From: a virus
Taxonomy: Duplodnaviria > Heunggongvirae > Uroviricota > Caudoviricetes
DNA: 7,420 nucleotides
Virus record (IMG/VR): IMGVR_UViG_2693429700_000021
Location: 1-7,420 of that record
Reading direction: 5' to 3' (one strand)
The first letter of the stretch is position 1. Each line of letters opens with the position of its first letter. Shown in pieces: positions 1-6,387 of the stretch. Under the pieces are notes generated by a model. The model saw only the letters and a list, made by a program, of their open reading frames with translations, was not told where the DNA came from and searched no databases. A program made the translations under genes and the position numbers.

Positions 1-168
1 CTGTGAGTCATATTCATCCTGACTTTCCAGAACCATACGAATCGCCCGCTGACGGACTTCGGGGGAAAAACGAGTATTTTTAGTCATCCTGTTTACCTCT
101 TTCTCAGGGAGTTTAGTCTCCAGGATTTCCGGGGCGGTTCAACCCGCTGCTTTATCGATGCCGATAAT

Positions 169-732
169 ATGCGAGCCGTCAGTGTGCTTAACCTGGGTAC
201 TATTGATGAACCAGGTCACGCAGATAACACCGCCACCCTCAAACTGAAAAAGACAGCACCGTTTTCTGCTCTGTTGTCTGTTAATGGCGAGCGTAACTCC
301 CAGAAGTCACTGGCAGAATGGATTGAAGACTGGGCCGACTACCTTGTGGGCTTTGATGCTAATGGTGACACCATTCAGGCAACCAAAGCGGCTGCGGCAG
401 TCCGTAAAATCACAATTGAAGCAAACCAGACCGCTGATTTTGAAGACAATGACTTCAGCGGCAAACGCTCTCTGATGGAGTCTGTCGAAGCGAAAACCAA
501 AGACATTATGCCAGTGGCATTTGAATTTAAATGCGTTCCGTTTGAAGGCCTGAAAGAACGTCCGTTTAAATTACGCCTCAGCATTATCACTGGCGATCGT
601 CCTGTACTGGTTCTGCGCATTATTCAGCTGGAAGCGGTGCAGGAAGAAATGGCTAACGAATTTCGTGATCTGCTTGTTGAGAAATTCAAAGACAGCAAAG
701 TAGAAACCTTTATTGGTACTTTCACCGCCTGA
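169..732 (+). CDS. Prophage protein of unknown function, probably DUF2303/YfdQ-like; N-terminus uncertain
   Basis: 187-codon ORF from ATG 169 to the stop at 730-732. The frame is open back to position 7 but has no ATG/GTG/TTG there, and no clear Shine-Dalgarno precedes 169. It lies directly upstream of a YfdR-like gene, as yfdQ does in E. coli CPS-53/KplE1. The family name rests on remembered gene order, not on an alignment. Confidence 0.6.
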
Positions 733-745
733 TTTCATTACTGCA

Positions 746-770
746 AATGCCCCTGCGGGGGCATTTATGG
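746..770 (+). terminator. Possible intrinsic terminator or attenuator between the yfdQ-like and yfdR-like genes
   Basis: Hairpin AAATGCCCC (746-754), loop TGCG, GGGGCATTT (759-767), then AT-rich TTTAT; it lies 14 nt after the stop at 732. The U-tract is short, so it may be only a partial terminator. Confidence 0.4.
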
Positions 771-860
771 AAACGTAATTAACTCAATAATCACCGGATG
801 GTGAGAGCTTCCTTTTAGCAGAATTCAGCGCGGTGCAGCGCATATAAAGTGGAGAACGAA

Positions 861-1397
861 ATGTCATTTATTAAAACTTTTTCCGGGAAGCATTTTTATT
901 ATGACAAGATAAATAAAGACGACATCGTGATTAACGATATCGCAGTTTCCCTTTCAAATATCTGTCGCTTTGCAGGACATCTTTCACACTTCTACAGTGT
1001 CGCCCAGCATGCGGTGCTTTGCAGCCAGCTGGTGCCGCAGGAATTTGCTTTTGAAGCGTTAATGCATGATGCAACAGAAGCATATTGCCAGGACATCCCC
1101 GCGCCACTAAAACGCCTTCTTCCTGACTATAAACGGATGGAAGAAAAAATAGACGCCGTAATCCGTGAGAAATACGGGTTACCCCCGGTTATGAGCACGC
1201 CTGTGAAATATGCCGATCTCATCATGCTGGCAACCGAACGCCGCGATCTCGGGCTTGATGATGGCTCTTTCTGGCCTGTACTGGAAGGCATCCCGGCGAC
1301 AGAGATGTTCAAAGTTATTCCACTGTCGCCAGGCCATGCCTATGGGATGTTTATGGAACGTTTTAACGAGTTATCGGAGTTACGCAAATGCGCATGA
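861..1397 (+). CDS. yfdR: HD-domain phosphohydrolase, YfdR-like 5'-deoxynucleotidase
   Basis: GGAG at 851-854 lies 6 nt before ATG 861, so I prefer this start to the GTG at 849 used by the ORF track; this gives 178 aa. HD-domain signature is readable: RFAGH, SVAQHAV, ALMHDATEAY with downstream Asp residues. The N-terminus MSFIKTFSGKHFYYD matches my memory of E. coli YfdR. Confidence 0.85.
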   Translation: MSFIKTFSGKHFYYDKINKDDIVINDIAVSLSNICRFAGHLSHFYSVAQHAVLCSQLVPQEFAFEALMHDATEAYCQDIPAPLKRLLPDYKRMEEKIDAVIREKYGLPPVMSTPVKYADLIMLATERRDLGLDDGSFWPVLEGIPATEMFKVIPLSPGHAYGMFMERFNELSELRKCA

Positions 1398-1903
1398 ATG
1401 TTTTCGAAATGGAAGGGTTTCTTCACGGGAGATGTGTACCGCGAGATCTGAAAGTGAACGAAACAAACGCTGAGTACCTGGTGCGTAAATTTGCTGAAGC
1501 TGAGTCCAAGTGCGCGGCGCTGGCGGCGGAGAATGCGGGGCTGAAGTCTGGCGCTATGGACGAAATCAAGGTTATCAACCGTGGAGGGCAGGCATATTGC
1601 GTAAAAGATGGAGTGCAAGTCAATCCCATGTATGCAAGAGGGTGGAATGACTATCGCGCAAAGTCTCTGCAATCAGACACCCCAGCCACCGATGCTTTCC
1701 TGGCTGAAGTACGGGCGCAGGGCGTGGATGCTGCTATAGAAGCTGCAAAAAATCTGGTGGCCCAAGAATATGAGTATAAGGATTTCAAAGCGGCACAGAG
1801 TGATTGCTGTATGCACCCTGGTTCAGACCGGGTAGGGAAGGTTGAAATGACTGAGTGGTTAGTTGACTTTGCTGCCCAGCTTCGCAAAGGAGGCAACCAG
1901 TGA
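1388..1903 (+). CDS. Hypothetical prophage early protein, possibly Ead/Ea22-like mosaic family
   Basis: 171-aa ORF whose ATG 1388 overlaps the yfdR stop (ATGCGCATGA). It ends ...KGGNQ* with its stop overlapping the next GTG start. The internal segment TPATDAFLAEVRAQGVDAA resembles segments I recall from Ea22-like prophage proteins. Confidence 0.65.
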   Translation: MRMNVFEMEGFLHGRCVPRDLKVNETNAEYLVRKFAEAESKCAALAAENAGLKSGAMDEIKVINRGGQAYCVKDGVQVNPMYARGWNDYRAKSLQSDTPATDAFLAEVRAQGVDAAIEAAKNLVAQEYEYKDFKAAQSDCCMHPGSDRVGKVEMTEWLVDFAAQLRKGGNQ

Positions 1904-2385
1904 CTGGACATGCAGCAATCCTCGACATGTGTTGTGGCAGTCGCATGTTCTGGTTCGATAAGAATGACGACCGGGCGATATTTAGCGATATCAGAAAGGA
2001 AGAGCACACATTATGTGATGGACGACGGCTGATAATTAGCCCTGACCTGATAGCAGATTTTCGTGCATTACCATTTGCAGACGCATCGTTTCCGGTTGTT
2101 GTATTCGACCCTCCGCATCTTGAGCGTGTTGGTGATAACGCCTGGATGGGAAAGAAATATGGACGACTGAATAAAGATACCTGGCGTGATGATTTGCGGC
2201 AGGGGTTTAAAGAAGCCTTTCGGGTGTTGTGGCCACACGGCGTTCTGATTTTTAAATGGAATGAAACGCAAATACCTGTTCGCCAGATATTGGCACTGAC
2301 CGACAGAAAGCCTGTTATCGGTCAACGAACAGGAAAGGGTGACAAGACCCACTGGATTATTTTTATGAAGGAGGGCAACCAGTGA
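1900..2385 (+). CDS. Small SAM-dependent methyltransferase, probably a DNA N6-adenine/N4-cytosine type
   Basis: GTG start at 1900 preceded by GGAGG (1889-1893) with a 6-nt spacer. SAM-binding motif I-like ILDMCCGSRMFW near the N-terminus and catalytic motif IV-like VVFDPPH (the (D/N/S)PP(Y/F/W/H) class). At 161 aa there is no room for a large target-recognition domain. Confidence 0.75.
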   Translation: MTGHAAILDMCCGSRMFWFDKNDDRAIFSDIRKEEHTLCDGRRLIISPDLIADFRALPFADASFPVVVFDPPHLERVGDNAWMGKKYGRLNKDTWRDDLRQGFKEAFRVLWPHGVLIFKWNETQIPVRQILALTDRKPVIGQRTGKGDKTHWIIFMKEGNQ

Positions 2386-3035
2386 GCAAGATTGACTATC
2401 AGGCACTGCGTGAGGCGGCAGAGCGTGCAATTCCGGCAATGGAACGCCTGTTAATGTTGCCAGTTGATGATGATCTGATAAGCGAACAGGAACTTAAAGA
2501 TTACGGTGTGGATATTGATGCGCTCAACGCCTTCAAATTTCTGACCGGACCAGAAACCGTGCTGGCGCTGCTGGATGAACGGGAAAGAAACCAGCAACAC
2601 ATCAAATCACGCTACCAGGAGAACGAGGATATTGCGCTAACGGTTGGGAGGCTGCTAATCGAAAACGGCCAGCTTGTTGCCGATACGCTACGCCACTTAT
2701 CTGATAACGAAATCGACTCTGATTATTTTGCTATCACCTCAACGAATGAGAACGGTACTGAAATTGATCATGAGATGGCTATTACCGATTACGCACTGCA
2801 AGCTGCCGGAACTGTAGACGAATTGGTTGCAGCGCTGGAATCCGCAGAGAAGCGTATTGCTGAACTGGAAGCGCGGGAAGTTCAATTACCGACTCGCTAC
2901 GACCTTCGATATGGACACCCGATAAATGCAGATGAGCTACATGTCATGATACCTAAAGAAAATGGCAGTTGGCTTTACCTGATTGACCTAGAACACGCAT
3001 TACGCGTCGCTGACATTCGCATCAAAGGAGAGTGA
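2382..3035 (+). CDS. Ead/Ea22-like prophage early protein
   Basis: GTG start at 2382 overlapping the upstream TGA, preceded by GGAGGG. N-terminal MSKIDYQALREAAERA, central VLALLDERE and C-terminal AEKRIAELEAREVQLP match conserved segments I recall from the Ead/Ea22-like family. Confidence 0.7.
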   Translation: MSKIDYQALREAAERAIPAMERLLMLPVDDDLISEQELKDYGVDIDALNAFKFLTGPETVLALLDERERNQQHIKSRYQENEDIALTVGRLLIENGQLVADTLRHLSDNEIDSDYFAITSTNENGTEIDHEMAITDYALQAAGTVDELVAALESAEKRIAELEAREVQLPTRYDLRYGHPINADELHVMIPKENGSWLYLIDLEHALRVADIRIKGE

Positions 3036-3036
3036 T

Positions 3037-3552
3037 ATGGCGCTAACACACCGCGAACTCTGTCAGATTGCGTACAAGTTCCTTAAGCGCAACGGGTTCA
3101 AGGTTTGTTTTCATGACCGCTTTATAGCTGTAACCAGTACCGGAGAACAGCCAGATGCTATGGGATTCAGAAATTCAGCATCATGCCTGATAGAGGCGAA
3201 GTGTTCTCGTGCTGACTTGTTGGCAGATAGAAAAAAGCGTTTTCGTAAAAATCCGTCTCTTGGAATGGGCGACTGGCGATTCTTTATTAGTGAGCCGGGA
3301 ATTATTTCAATTGAGGATTTACCACCTGGCTGGGGATTACTTCACGTTGTTAACGGAAGAGTACGGAAAGTACATGGGTGGCCCAAGGGTAATTGCTGTT
3401 GGGGTAATCCTGACGATAAGCCATTTACTGGAAATAAGCAGGTTGAATGCGATTACATGTTATCTGCATTAAGGCGCATGGAGTTGAGAGGGCACCTTAA
3501 TGAAATATATGACGGTGTAATTGTTAATAAGAAAGAAGGAAACGCGGCATGA
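3037..3552 (+). CDS. PD-(D/E)xK nuclease-like protein of unknown function
   Basis: ATG 3037 with AGGAG 6 nt upstream. N-terminal region has an upstream Glu (RELCQ), then GEQPDAMGF and, 13 residues later, CLIEAKCS, which fits the PD...(D/E)xK restriction-endonuclease-like core. The C-terminal half is Cys/Trp-rich (GNCCWGNPDD). Confidence 0.6.
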   Translation: MALTHRELCQIAYKFLKRNGFKVCFHDRFIAVTSTGEQPDAMGFRNSASCLIEAKCSRADLLADRKKRFRKNPSLGMGDWRFFISEPGIISIEDLPPGWGLLHVVNGRVRKVHGWPKGNCCWGNPDDKPFTGNKQVECDYMLSALRRMELRGHLNEIYDGVIVNKKEGNAA

Positions 3553-3950
3553 TCACTATTACCAAAGAGCGACTACTGACAATCAAGCAGTGGCGCGAAA
3601 CATACGGACCTGATAGCAACGTTGTACTGCCAGCAGAAGAAGCGGAAGAACTGGCGCGGATTGCGCTGGCATCGCTGGAAGCAGAACCGGTGGCATGGCT
3701 GCATTCAGACAATGGCTTAGGTATTCCGGCAATAACACGGAGTAAAAACGTTGCTGACAGTTGGTTATCAAAGGGTTGGTATGTTCAGCCGCTATATATA
3801 GCTCAGCCAGTACACGTGCCGGAGGAAATGAATCTGGCACGCGCACAGAAAGAGGTGGGTTTTAATCGATATATCATGGCTGGGTATGTTGATGGCTGGA
3901 ACGCCTGCCGCGCTGCCATGCTTCAGAGCCAAGGTGGAGGCAACCAATGA
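3549..3950 (+). CDS. Hypothetical prophage early protein
   Basis: 133-aa ORF; ATGA start/stop overlap with the upstream gene. It ends GGGNQ* at the conserved junction motif. No catalytic motif recognised. Confidence 0.65.
   Translation: MITITKERLLTIKQWRETYGPDSNVVLPAEEAEELARIALASLEAEPVAWLHSDNGLGIPAITRSKNVADSWLSKGWYVQPLYIAQPVHVPEEMNLARAQKEVGFNRYIMAGYVDGWNACRAAMLQSQGGGNQ
3864..3878 (+). repeat. 15-nt exact repeat ATCGATATATCATGG, copy 1, inside the 3' part of CDS 3549..3950
   Basis: Identical 15-mer recurs at 6373-6387, with flanking similarity (TTTT before; GG..TATGTT after). Confidence 0.7.
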
Positions 3951-4258
3951 GCAATTATCTGTACTGGTCTGGCTTAGTGGCTAACATCGCGCTCATGTTG
4001 TTCGTGGCTCTTTGCATCTGGGTTTGGTTTATCTGGCCTTTTGTAGAAGCCATGAGCATAACTCGGTGCTTTATTTGCGCATCAAAGACTTCTGGATGCA
4101 AACCAACTGTAAGAGCAATTATCAGAACTTTAAAATACTGGTATCTGGATTTGCTTTTCGGCAGGGGCTGGACGCGAATTAGTAACCGCCAGTTTGAATG
4201 GGAAGGCGTCGGTAACTGGCGAATTCACAGCAGCAAAGAAACGCAGGAGGTGAAGTAA
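3947..4258 (+). CDS. Small membrane protein, hypothetical
   Basis: 103-aa ORF, ATG 3947 overlapping the upstream stop, GGAGG 6 nt upstream. Strongly hydrophobic N-terminal segment LVANIALMLFVALCIWVWFIWPFV predicts one transmembrane helix (possibly two); a Cys-containing stretch CFICASKTSGC follows. Confidence 0.6.
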   Translation: MSNYLYWSGLVANIALMLFVALCIWVWFIWPFVEAMSITRCFICASKTSGCKPTVRAIIRTLKYWYLDLLFGRGWTRISNRQFEWEGVGNWRIHSSKETQEVK

Positions 4259-4830
4259 TGAATAACTTAATGATCGACCTTGAGACGATGGGGAAAAATA
4301 AGGATGCACCGATCGTTTCCATTGGCGCGGTGTTCTTCACTCCAGAAACCGGAGACATCGGACAAGAATTCTATACGGTTGTTAGCCTGGAAAGTGCTAT
4401 GGGGCAAGGAGCTACACCTGACGGCGATACCATCCTGTGGTGGTTGAAACAGAGCTCTGAAGCACGAGCTGCAATCTGTATTGATGATACTTTGTCGATC
4501 AGCGATGCACTCTCTGAACTGAGCCATTTCATTAATCAGCATGCAGACAATACAAAATATTTAAAAGTCTGGGGTAACGGGGCCACCTTCGACAACGTAA
4601 TTTTACGTGGAGCTTACGAGCGAGCAGGACAAATCTGCCCGTGGGCGTACTGGAATGACCACGATGTACGCACGATCGTTACGCTTGGGCGTTCCATCGG
4701 ATTCGACCCCAAAATGGACATGCCTTTCGATGGCGAACGGCACAACGCCCTGGCTGATGCCCGTCATCAGGCAAAATATGTTTCCGCTATCTGGCAGAAA
4801 CTAATTCCTGCCACCAGCACAGAATTATGA
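4258..4830 (+). CDS. DnaQ-like DEDDh 3'-5' exonuclease (prophage exonuclease)
   Basis: ATG 4258 overlapping the upstream TAA (TAATG), GGAGG at 4246-4250. Exo I motif MIDLETMG (D-x-E), Exo II WGNGATFDNV and Exo III HNALADARH (H-x4-D) are all present in the expected order. Confidence 0.85.
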   Translation: MNNLMIDLETMGKNKDAPIVSIGAVFFTPETGDIGQEFYTVVSLESAMGQGATPDGDTILWWLKQSSEARAAICIDDTLSISDALSELSHFINQHADNTKYLKVWGNGATFDNVILRGAYERAGQICPWAYWNDHDVRTIVTLGRSIGFDPKMDMPFDGERHNALADARHQAKYVSAIWQKLIPATSTEL

Positions 4831-4866
4831 TTTTCCCGGGTGCAGCCGGTTTTGATGGAGAAAATT

Positions 4867-5148
4867 ATGAACACCTTGTTTTTACTGATGGCTGAATTCA
4901 ATACCCCTAACATTGAACTCTCAGCAGTTAGCCAAAAGTACTTTGGCATGAGTCCAGCCACGGCAGAAGCAAAAGCAAACGCTTGTAAGTTGCCCGTTCC
5001 AACATATCGCATCGGCACATCACAAAAAGCAAAACGTTGCATCAATATTCAGGATCTTGCGGAATACATAGACAAAAGACGAGAAGAAGGACGTATCGAG
5101 TGGGAACAGGTCAGAACAAGCAAACAGAAGGGCAAAGAACATCACTAA
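4867..5148 (+). CDS. Excisionase/recombination directionality factor-like protein, PrtN/P22-Xis-like family
   Basis: The track ORF starts at GTG 4840, but GGAG (4857-4860) sits 6 nt before ATG 4867, giving MNTLFLLMAEF..., the N-terminus typical of PrtN-family excisionases. Stop at 5146-5148, followed directly by a strong terminator. Confidence 0.7.
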   Translation: MNTLFLLMAEFNTPNIELSAVSQKYFGMSPATAEAKANACKLPVPTYRIGTSQKAKRCINIQDLAEYIDKRREEGRIEWEQVRTSKQKGKEHH

Positions 5149-5150
5149 AG

Positions 5151-5177
5151 AAAAAACCCGCCTAAAGGCGGGTTTTC
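5151..5177. terminator. Bidirectional rho-independent terminator
   Basis: AAAAAA (5151-5156), stem CCCGCC (5157-5162), loop TAAA, stem GGCGGG (5167-5172), then TTTTC. This gives a U-run on both strands, between the convergent + strand excisionase-like gene and the minus-strand 57-codon ORF. Confidence 0.75.
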
Positions 5178-5195
5178 AAAAAGCACCAGCTATGA

Positions 5196-5369
5196 TCATG
5201 CTGCTTTGCGACGACGAAGCTTACCCTGCTGCTCTTTACCAGAGACAGTAGCGTGAGTGAACGCATTAGGAGCAGCCTTCATCAGAACTTCAACAGCAGC
5301 ACCCATACCTGCGAATGCTTTCATTGTGTCGAACTTAACCTGTGGCTTGGTTGCTTTTTGATCTTTCAT
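5196..5369 (-). CDS. Small hypothetical protein (57 aa), absent from the ORF track
   Basis: My own translation of the minus strand gives MKDQKATKPQVKFDTMKAFAGMGAAVEVLMKAAPNAFTHATVSGKEQQGKLRRRKAA. ATG at 5369-5367, GGGAG 6 nt upstream on the minus strand, TGA stop at 5198-5196, and the bidirectional terminator about 20 nt downstream. Confidence 0.55.
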   Translation of the reverse strand: MKDQKATKPQVKFDTMKAFAGMGAAVEVLMKAAPNAFTHATVSGKEQQGKLRRRKAA

Positions 5370-5439
5370 AGAAAACTCCCGAGACAGTAAAGGCGTCTCT
5401 AACCCTCTCTTTAAAGCTAGCTTGTTTCGCTAACTTATG

Positions 5440-5460
5440 CCAATCGATCATGTCGATTGG
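5440..5460. promoter_or_regulatory. Perfect inverted repeat CCAATCGA-N5-TCGATTGG, candidate operator
   Basis: 8-bp arms are exact reverse complements around a 5-bp spacer. It lies about 70-90 bp upstream of the small minus-strand ORF and overlaps a -35-like TTGGCA on the minus strand. No adjacent U-tract, so it is not a terminator. Confidence 0.3.
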
Positions 5461-5565
5461 TGACATCGTTTCTTAGTAGTTTAAGCACAAAACGACTGCC
5501 ATAGATGTACCTTTAAGGTAATCTGGACGGGTATCCTACAATTTGTAGCCCCTTCTCGTCTATAC

Positions 5566-6102
5566 CTACTGAGCAAATTTAAGAAAGATATCCTGCAGCT
5601 CATCAATGACTGCAGACATCACATAACCGCACTGTTCCATGCGGAAACCAAAAGACTCGTAATACTGCACCAGTTCTGGTACTGGCTCTACAATGTGGAC
5701 AACTTTACATTCAACAGCTTTACAAAATATAAAAGCACTCATAAGAGTGAGTAAAACCATGCGCCCTTTCAATGGGTGAGATTCATCTTCTCTAGAAAAC
5801 CTTTCGATCATATGGATACGAAAGATGTTTTCTTCAACCCCATAAACACAAATTGCTGCTCCTGATGGTATTCCCTGAACCCGACCTTGCTGAACAAGTT
5901 TTATGCAGAACTCATACTTTTCTCTGGAGTTGCCATAGGTGCTTAACGCATAGTCCCATTCAAGCTCACCATAGCCACCACACAGAATCTTGTAATCATC
6001 ATCACTGAGCGGACCAACAGCAAGAGGTAAGCCGACATGATCAATAATCAACTGGATATTGTTACGTACAGATTGACCTATCTCGTCTAGGGTAAGCATC
6101 AT
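5566..6102 (-). CDS. GNAT-fold-like acyltransferase candidate, atypical
   Basis: 178-aa ORF starting with tandem ATG codons (6102-6097) and ending at TAG 5568-5566. C-terminal YYESFGF resembles the conserved GNAT beta-strand (FYxxLGF), and HPLKGRMVLLTLMSAF is a weak candidate for the acetyl-CoA-binding segment. The canonical R/Q-x-x-G-x-G/A motif is not cleanly present, so the fold assignment is tentative. Confidence 0.6.
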   Translation of the reverse strand: MMLTLDEIGQSVRNNIQLIIDHVGLPLAVGPLSDDDYKILCGGYGELEWDYALSTYGNSREKYEFCIKLVQQGRVQGIPSGAAICVYGVEENIFRIHMIERFSREDESHPLKGRMVLLTLMSAFIFCKAVECKVVHIVEPVPELVQYYESFGFRMEQCGYVMSAVIDELQDIFLKFAQ

Positions 6103-6131
6103 AGACTCTCAAGCGGAACACTAAAAATCTC

Positions 6132-6137
6132 ATTATA
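6132..6137 (-). promoter_or_regulatory. Candidate -10 hexamer (TATAAT) for the GNAT-like gene
   Basis: Exact TATAAT on the minus strand, 29 nt upstream of the ATG at 6102. No good -35 match; the palindrome ATGCCcGGCAT (6148-6158) occupies the -35 region. Confidence 0.3.
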
Positions 6138-6372
6138 TCTCATTCTGATGCCCGGCATGGATTACACCTTGAAATGAAAACACCGGGTTCCCAATAGGCT
6201 CCCACAAAGTGTATAACTACTTGTTTTTCAAAAACGATACATCCTATCGAGCATTGGTGCAACGCTAAACCGACCACTCCAGTGAACGTCAGTTTTTTCA
6301 GGCATTGCGCTGGTTTGGTTGATTTTTTGCATTTCAGAATTACCGTGCATTTTCAAATGTAGAGATTATTTT

Positions 6373-6387
6373 ATCGATATATCATGG
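6373..6387 (+). repeat. 15-nt exact repeat ATCGATATATCATGG, copy 2, in the intergenic region
   Basis: Same 15-mer as 3864-3878; about 30 nt downstream is CAGGAGGCTCAATAGCG, which resembles the GGAGGCAACCAATGA gene-junction motif. Confidence 0.7.

Follow-up and report, generated by a model that had tools for sequence, protein, structure and literature searches.

Since 1978 it has been debated whether phage mosaicism arises through short conserved linkers or through random illegitimate joints that selection then sorts. To our knowledge, a linker is missing from most mosaic joints. The question is posed here by the motif GGAGG(G)CAACCA(G/A)TGA, which stands at three gene boundaries, designated J1 (1889-1903), J2 (2370-2385) and J3 (3936-3950), in a stretch of 7,420 nucleotides (nt) of Caudoviricetes DNA (IMG/VR record IMGVR_UViG_2693429700_000021, positions 1 to 7,420; hereafter the window). 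This DNA comes from a degraded lambdoid prophage adjoining dusA in Escherichia coli, of which it represents the early-left accessory ('ea', exo-xis type) region. The evidence described below indicates that the motif probably serves enterobacterial lambdoid and P22-like phages as a portable linker between genes of their early-left accessory operon. It is a well-documented instance of the known boundary-sequence concept and not a new kind of system.

The junction motif and its conservation as nucleotides

An earlier note on this DNA, made from its letters, had given the three motif positions, and all of them proved exact on re-reading. A pattern search of both strands of the window with up to two mismatches returned the same three sites only, all on the plus strand. 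Chance would supply 0.04 copies in the window, three or more copies occurred in none of 200 dinucleotide shuffles, and the 32.6-kb source locus contains no copies beyond J1, J2 and J3. As the note had described, the upstream open reading frame (ORF) at each junction ends in G-N-Q-stop and this stop overlaps the following start by 4 nt (GTGA or ATGA). The Shine-Dalgarno (SD) sequence had been placed 6 nt before the start, which holds for J1 and J3; at J2 the distance from GGAGG is 7 nt, or 6 nt when GAGGG is taken as the SD. The three downstream starts are the same as in RefSeq, and the Pfam Ead_Ea22 alignment begins at residue 2 of the Ea22-like protein that starts with GTG at 2382. All three junctions have the geometry of a coupled gene pair, with the stop overlapping the start, the SD inside the upstream ORF and GGAGG 6-7 nt before the start. 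Judged from this overlap geometry, translational coupling at the motif junctions is likely. Strict dependence on coupling is not implied, because no structure that sequesters the SD is predicted.

The three upstream proteins had been called otherwise unrelated, and BLASTP among them detected no significant similarity besides the tails and one 15-residue patch (E 0.02, six-protein search). The patch, GWNxxRxxxLQS, is common to residues 82-96 of ORF171 (1631-1675) and residues 113-127 of ORF133 (3885-3929), and could represent a further short module that is shuffled among ea-region proteins.

That the nucleotide sequence dictates the common ends of the proteins, a view also put forward in the note, is supported by the use of a second reading frame. 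Among 95 distinct related contexts, the motif is read as ...GGNQ-stop in 70 and in another frame in 24; the second frame gives ...EATSE-stop, ...EATSEQD-stop and similar ends, which overlap the downstream gene by 8 or 14 nt. The methyltransferase (MTase) encoded between J1 and J2 ends in ...KEATSE-stop in the related locus L228 versus ...KEGNQ-stop in the window, a one-G difference. The motif abuts the end of the upstream ORF in all 95 contexts, and some motif contexts lack a long in-frame upstream ORF. Since about a quarter of the distinct contexts use another frame, it is the nucleotides that are conserved and not the GNQ peptide. To the left of J1, the AAQLRK tail is truly conserved as protein within the EaE/HkaH family; HK620 HkaH ends in FADQLRKGGSQ-stop versus FAAQLRKGGNQ-stop for the 171-residue protein of the window.

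A motif scan of IMG/VR returned 120 loci. Those in unrelated metagenomic contigs seem to be due to chance, whereas the motif copies of enterobacterial prophage contigs are parts of a recurring junction, ...GCCGCCCAGCTTCGCAAA / GGAGGCAACCAGTGA / GCAAGATTGACTATCAGGCACTGCGTGAGG, the left part of which codes for the C-terminus (F/I/W)A(A/E/D)(Q/E)(L/I)RKGGNQ-stop and the right part for the conserved N-terminus of Ead/Ea22-like proteins, MSKIDYQALREAAE. The extended junction is present in 465 phage records from Escherichia, Shiga toxin (Stx)-converting, Shigella and Salmonella P22-like phages. The home of the motif is probably this boundary between an EaE/HkaH-family and an Ead/Ea22-family gene, with the gene at 1388-1903 as the 'home' upstream partner. 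At the hkaH/hkaG boundary of HK620 the junction is copied with one mismatch, GGAGGCAGCCAGTGA, which accounts for the GGSQ end of HkaH, and the end of P22 EaE has a related but different junction sequence.

A sample independent of the motif was gathered via YfdR and via the exonuclease encoded downstream, giving 155 anchored loci. Both anchors were present in 113 loci, which reduced to 74 unique yfdR-to-exonuclease regions of 754-3679 nt. At least one exact motif copy was found in 37 of the 74 regions, always on the coding strand, and a copy with up to two mismatches in 46, with five sequence variants (GGAGGCAACCAGTGA, ..CAGCCA.., ..AATGA, GAGGGCAACC.. and AGAGGCAACC..). The window alone among the 74 has three exact copies. 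When the 18-mer AAAGGAGGCAACCAGTGA was sought in one genome per species across 185,579 species, 23 matches were obtained against about 17 expected by chance, and 2 of the 23 were in Escherichia. The string occurs at about the chance rate across species and is therefore lineage-specific rather than a general optimum; the motif is restricted to phages of Escherichia, Shigella and Salmonella. The whole arrangement of the window is contiguous in 1 of 5,426 complete E. coli genomes, and its pieces are found in 3,378 genomes.

Assortment of flanking sequences and gene cassettes at the motif

The sequences on the two sides of the motif are combined in many ways. Clustering of the motif-selected loci by their flanks 40-240 nt away left 58 distinct left/right combinations after dereplication, and the 18 non-singleton clusters on the left paired with the 16 on the right in a great many ways. 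Long homology on the left was lost on the right in 68 of 72 pairs, 35 of them within 5 nt of the motif end; about 30 of these right-side losses lay at 25-50 nt, the end of the conserved N-terminal stretch of Ea22. Long homology on the right was lost on the left in 86 of 90 pairs (48 within 5 nt of the motif start). An annotation-free scan then covered all 10,349 15-mers that recur in the 74 motif-independent regions. By contexts on both sides the motif ranks 1 of 10,349, having 11 left and 13 right contexts in 31 occurrences, and 93% of the recurring 15-mers have a single context on at least one side.

Breakpoints were taken as the endpoints of alignments between the window and the 155 anchored loci. 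Homology to other loci starts at 1877-79 (J1), 2368 (J2) and 3936-37 (J3) and stops at 2386-89, and the start at 2368 is seen in four distinct contexts. The left flank of J1 is joined to at least four different downstream genes. Three different upstream genes are joined through the motif to ORF103, the gene after J3; the ORF103 start is ATG or GTG, according to the partner. The MTase gene elsewhere follows the motif behind variants of another EaE/HkaH-type gene (..EEWAEQIRKGGNQ-stop), not behind the ORF171 of the window.

Two cassettes bounded by the motif are present in the window and absent from relatives. In loci L228 and L251, the 3′ end of the MTase gene is joined to ORF103 via a single motif copy and a three-gene block is absent. 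Window 1877-2389 aligns to L228 6186-6697 and window 3937-5200 to L228 6680-7943; both alignments overlap by 18 nt, which is the single motif copy of L228. Compared with these loci the window has an extra 1.55 kb with three genes (2386-3936) between the direct repeats J2 and J3. In L039, L014, L094 and L007, the window-type EaE/HkaH-like gene is directly joined to an Ea22-like gene and the MTase gene is absent. Here window 1682-1903 aligns to L039 1680-1459 and window 2368-2654 to L039 1475-1190, and the 17-nt overlap on the subject is the motif. Because the relatives carry EaE-like, one motif and Ea22-like, or MTase, one motif and ORF103, the MTase gene and the three-gene block are each flanked by direct repeats of the motif. 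Identity between L039 and the window shifts abruptly from 98.6% on the left to 92.3% on the right of the motif, so the two sides have different histories. Wherever a motif-ended gene meets a motif-started gene there is always one in-register copy, never a tandem or partial duplicate.

The boundary-sequence concept goes back to the modular theory of Susskind and Botstein (1978) and to the work of Clark, Inwood, Cloutier and Dhillon (2001) on HK620 and other lambdoid phages, as these are cited in PMC3029335 and PMC2327257; it holds that short conserved boundary sequences are able to mediate module exchange (PMC3029335). Like such sequences, the motif is a short string between dissimilar neighbours, lies at gene boundaries of an early operon and coincides with transitions in similarity; other breakpoints are numerous. 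What the present locus adds is three copies in one array, cassette insertions and deletions (indels) bounded by direct repeats, two reading frames and the 15-mer ranking. HK620, which was itself studied for boundary sequences, has the one-mismatch motif at hkaH/hkaG, and this junction may therefore already be among the examples of Clark et al. (2001). In a full-text literature search, outside which the text of Clark et al. (2001) lay, the exact motif string was not found and only unrelated primer sequences matched.

The earlier note had suggested such a fit to lambdoid boundary sequences, to be checked by the presence of the motif at homologous junctions and by mosaic breakpoints coinciding with it. 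Presence was confirmed in the 465 phage records, in half of the 74 regions (46 with up to two mismatches) and in HK620. Coincidence was borne out by the alignment endpoints, the two motif-bounded cassette polymorphisms and the top-ranking 15-mer. The fit is thus upheld by independent assortment of the flanks, cassette indels and matching breakpoints. With one 15-nt string in at least 11 upstream by 13 downstream contexts, repeats that bound indels and two frames, the locus is an unusually clean positive case, and the linker model is therefore directly testable. The motif is also usable as a marker that delimits accessory-gene cassettes in Stx and other lambdoid prophages.

A proposed mechanism and its alternatives

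The 15-nt string serves three purposes at once: its TGA ends the upstream ORF, its (AA)GGAGG is a strong SD at a distance of 6 nt from the next start, and that start is supplied by a GTG or ATG that overlaps the stop by 4 nt. Several unrelated accessory genes now end in the same string. Because they share it, a crossover between motif copies, allelic or non-allelic, would always be in register, so that the upstream gene terminates and the downstream gene keeps its initiation signals. Such crossovers would insert, delete and reassort whole gene cassettes, and could be guided over 15-18 nt of identity by phage single-strand-annealing recombinases or host RecA. From the sequence comparisons we consider it likely that short-identity-guided crossovers, probably by annealing recombinases or RecA in co-resident phages and prophages, reassort the cassettes, and that the surviving products are those with termination and initiation intact. 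The three copies of the window would be the expected outcome of one or two unequal crossovers between non-allelic copies. A cross between a phage with the order X-m-MTase-m-ORF103 (m, motif) and one with the order EaE-m-Ea22...ORF133-m-ORF103, for example, could stack the MTase cassette and the three-gene block in one array. Single-strand-annealing proteins and Rad52-like recombinases (lambda Red, RecET, Erf, Sak4) could plausibly carry out crossovers between co-resident (pro)phages over 15-60 nt of identity. Both HK620 and P22 have genes for annealing-type recombinases in the same operon, and the window contains no recombinase gene. RecET recombines homologies of 5-13 bp at low frequency, and relaxed recombination by Red has been described (Martinsohn et al., 2008, PMC2327257).

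Several points weigh against a leading role of the motif in exchange. For homologous recombination to be efficient, an identity of 15-18 nt is short. The events on record at such short homologies are all of low frequency (PMC2327257). The conserved stretch at J1 reaches further left, into the C-terminus that is conserved at the protein level in the EaE/HkaH family, and many of the Ea22-like exchanges could have taken place next to the motif, in 30-45 nt that code for the conserved N-terminus. The clustering of contexts, on ungapped 40-nt flanks, may overcount them. All four non-motif gene junctions are breakpoints as well (1395-1403, 3039-42, 3548-49 and 4230-42), and further breakpoints fall inside genes, at 1491-1546, 2550-63, 2654-56, 2850, 3660, 3681-98 and 3808-13; some of these intragenic sites have eight or nine distinct continuations, more than the motif sites. 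Since non-motif junctions and intragenic sites also break, the motif is not needed for mosaicism here and is one exchange point among several, not the only one and perhaps not the main one.

Breakpoints at all gene junctions and at numerous motif-free positions inside genes are what a passive origin would give, in which illegitimate joints form, selection keeps those at gene edges (the Hendrix model) and the motif travels with the gene ends without guiding any crossover. The identity of a mere 15-18 nt also fits this explanation, as does the finding that Ea22-like genes occur with other initiation regions and EaE-like genes with other junction sequences. However, the two sides of the same 15 nt vary independently, to the extent that the motif leads the ranking of all recurring 15-mers, and the joints invariably carry exactly one in-register copy, as homology-guided joining gives, which argues against illegitimate joining. 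We regard passive hitch-hiking, the main rival, as unlikely. It is very unlikely that unrelated junctions evolved the same SD, spacer and overlap independently under selection for an optimal initiation or coupling signal, even though AAGGAGG is a near-perfect SD, a 6-nt spacer rich in A and C is favourable, and no junction type is commoner in these operons than the ATGA/GTGA overlap (75 of 396 junctions, a tally in which some gene starts are mis-set; the main tests use annotation-free k-mers and alignment endpoints). The other junctions of these operons have many different SD-spacer strings and the 18-mer is not above chance outside Escherichia, which points to descent and exchange rather than convergence; on the species-wide count, a universal optimal initiation region was rejected. 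An identical 6-nt spacer at three junctions would arise by chance with a probability of about 1e-6 or less, and the flanks of the cassette indels are 92-99% identical, which means descent. Coupled ATGA/GTGA junctions of phage and bacterial operons resemble the motif in their 4-nt overlap, in a strong SD inside the end of the upstream ORF and in optimal spacing, but each is specific to its own gene pair, whereas the motif puts one and the same string between many unrelated pairs of genes.

Conservation of ...RKGGNQ as a functional C-terminal peptide, for instance an interaction or degradation tag, would explain why the tail (F/I/W)A(A/E/D)(Q/E)(L/I)RKGGNQ is kept with varying codons in many EaE/HkaH-family proteins, and for this longer tail the explanation holds. 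As a general cause of the motif it is highly improbable and is rejected by the second-frame contexts; some contexts, moreover, lack a long in-frame upstream ORF, and the MTase and ORF133, unrelated proteins, have only G-N-Q in common with the EaE tail. Single-gene cassettes separated by a repeated short sequence superficially resemble integron arrays, where promoterless single genes are likewise set apart by a short element that recurs, and where relatives differ in the cassettes they carry. A dedicated site-specific recombination site of this kind, or a structured regulatory RNA element, is nevertheless extremely improbable. Integron arrays have an integrase and attC imperfect inverted repeats; the motif array is without both, and the motif is a coding and initiation sequence of 15 nt, on the coding strand only and always overlapping a start codon. 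Neither the window ORFs nor the annotation of the source locus include an integron integrase or any recombinase gene associated with the array; the motif is not a member of the attC family. Inverted-repeat or hairpin potential was not detected in folds of the junctions with 45 nt on each side, which were no better than shuffles (z +0.5, -0.6 and +1.0), and Rfam at the gathering threshold returned no match in the whole window; a structured RNA or riboswitch-like element was rejected on these grounds. A Chi-like or other hotspot on the reverse strand was set aside as well, as two positions separate the reverse complement, TCACTGGTTGCCTCC, from GCTGGTGG.

The reading of the motif as a portable linker could be carried further. 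It is conceivable, but on these sequences quite unlikely, that the motif goes beyond a passive stretch of homology and acts as a selected 'adaptor', a universal in-frame joint by which the ea operon becomes an expandable array of cassettes; it would be kept identical in unrelated genes as a promoter of unequal crossing-over, and perhaps be preferred by the annealing recombinase of the phage itself. If so, the adaptor would let lambdoid prophages, and large plasmids or phage-plasmids with the same array, trade accessory genes far above the background rate.

Gene content of the window and related linkers

The window is a 100% match to positions 31218-38637 of E. coli strain Z1323CEC0019 (NZ_CP148401.1). 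The counterpart of this region is the ea region in P22 and HK620, and in lambda and the Stx phages it is the exo-xis region. Genes were assigned from the ORF list, the RefSeq annotation of the source genome and Pfam matches, and the ORF list and RefSeq concur on the gene boundaries (Table 1). The match of the 171-residue EaE/HkaH-like protein to P22 EaE (E 1e-9) is weaker than that to HK620 HkaH.

Table 1. Positions of genes, motif copies, cassettes and other features in the window (aa, amino acids; SAM, S-adenosylmethionine; IS, insertion sequence).
Feature	Position	Strand	Remarks
IS1203 end	1-142		interrupts DUF2303/yfdQ gene; window begins inside IS end
yfdR	861-1397	+	
EaE/HkaH-family gene, 171 aa (ORF171)	1388-1903	+	BLASTP to HK620 HkaH, E 9e-31
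J1 including conserved left extension, CAGCTTCGCAAA	1877-1903	+	
J1 core, GGAGGCAACCAGTGA	1889-1903	+	EaE/HkaH-like stop (...QLRKGGNQ-stop), SD AAGGAGG, MTase GTG start 1900
Class I SAM-dependent methyltransferase (MTase), 161 aa	1900-2385	+	RefSeq product name; weak Pfam Methyltransf_11/25
Single-gene MTase cassette	1904-2385	+	between direct repeats J1 and J2
J2, GGAGGGCAACCAGTGA, one extra G	2370-2385	+	MTase stop (...FMKEGNQ-stop), SD, Ea22-like GTG start 2382
Ead/Ea22-like gene	2382-3035	+	Pfam Ead_Ea22, E 5.7e-26
Three-gene block (Ea22-like gene, ORF171b, ORF133)	2382-3950	+	between J2 and J3
Second, different junction linker, CATTCGCATCAAAGGAGAGTGATATG	3014-3039	+	Ea22 C-terminus (..IRIKGE-stop), SD, next start
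ORF171b, hypothetical	3037-3552	+	
ORF133, hypothetical	3549-3950	+	
J3, GGAGGCAACCAATGA	3936-3950	+	ORF133 stop (...QGGGNQ-stop), SD, ORF103 ATG start 3947
ORF103, hypothetical, 103 aa	3947-4258	+	J3 downstream partner
3'-5' exonuclease	4258-4830	+	
PrtN/excisionase-like gene	4867-5148	+	

The DUF2303/yfdQ gene is split by an IS1203 copy (window 1-142 and 343-732). At the prophage end (4867-6350) the PrtN/excisionase-like gene is followed by a hairpin terminator (about 5155-5176), beyond which lie two small hypothetical genes on the minus strand and then a 5′ fragment of dusA. The prophage element looks immobilised, because no integrase remains. A homologue of the MTase gene at 1503-1995 of L302 (NZ_CP026929.2), 86.5% identical, is internally stopped and represents a decaying pseudogene. 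Its surroundings resemble the replication region of Rac, and a DUF977 gene precedes it; the motif is missing from the 5′ end, and the 3′ end carries a degenerate AGAGGCATCCAGTGAG.

The RefSeq annotation, produced by the Prokaryotic Genome Annotation Pipeline (PGAP), labels the ORFs at 2382-3035, 3037-3552 and 3549-3950 (L001 15605-16849) as partial or frameshifted pseudogenes, and each of them is an intact ORF in the window. The ORFs of 2382-3950 are module mosaics, with intragenic breakpoints at 2550-63, 2654-56, 2850, 3660 and 3681-98, and are therefore misjudged by homology-based annotation. The motif explains why annotation pipelines call intact mosaic ORFs 'partial' or 'frameshifted' in this region.

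The second linker of the window, CATTCGCATCAAAGGAGAGTGATATG, takes rank 2 in the 15-mer context scan, with 11 left and 9 right contexts, and breakpoints are found at both of its edges (3014 and 3039-3042). In related loci (L122-L276), not in the window, an intragenic stretch of about 50 nt, CAACTCTCCGGTAACTCCGGATGGTTGGATAAGCTGTAGTGAGCGAATGCC, occurs in many different contexts and is an apparent domain-boundary exchange point before a DUF551-type domain.

The E. coli plasmid NZ_CP048611.1 (about 96 kb; L303, 23162-31536) carries an ea-type array with three motif-type junctions, GGGGGCAACCAGTGA, GGAAGCAGCCAGTGA and GGAGGCAACCAGTGA, at 1492, 2193 and 3190 of the locus. Pieces of the window also match the phages JL22, vB_EcoM-813R1, PhiR41_1 and SJ46, of about 100 kb. 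Given this array and these matches, ea cassettes are common to lambdoid prophages and large plasmids or phage-plasmids. P22 (L278) has a repeated junction of its own, CAGCCCAATGAGCAACATCGACAAAC, at the starts of the successive ea genes eaF (25855) and eaD (25499). The products of both genes have the N-terminus MSNIDK in common, and this points to a linker-mediated duplication of the same kind in which another string was used.

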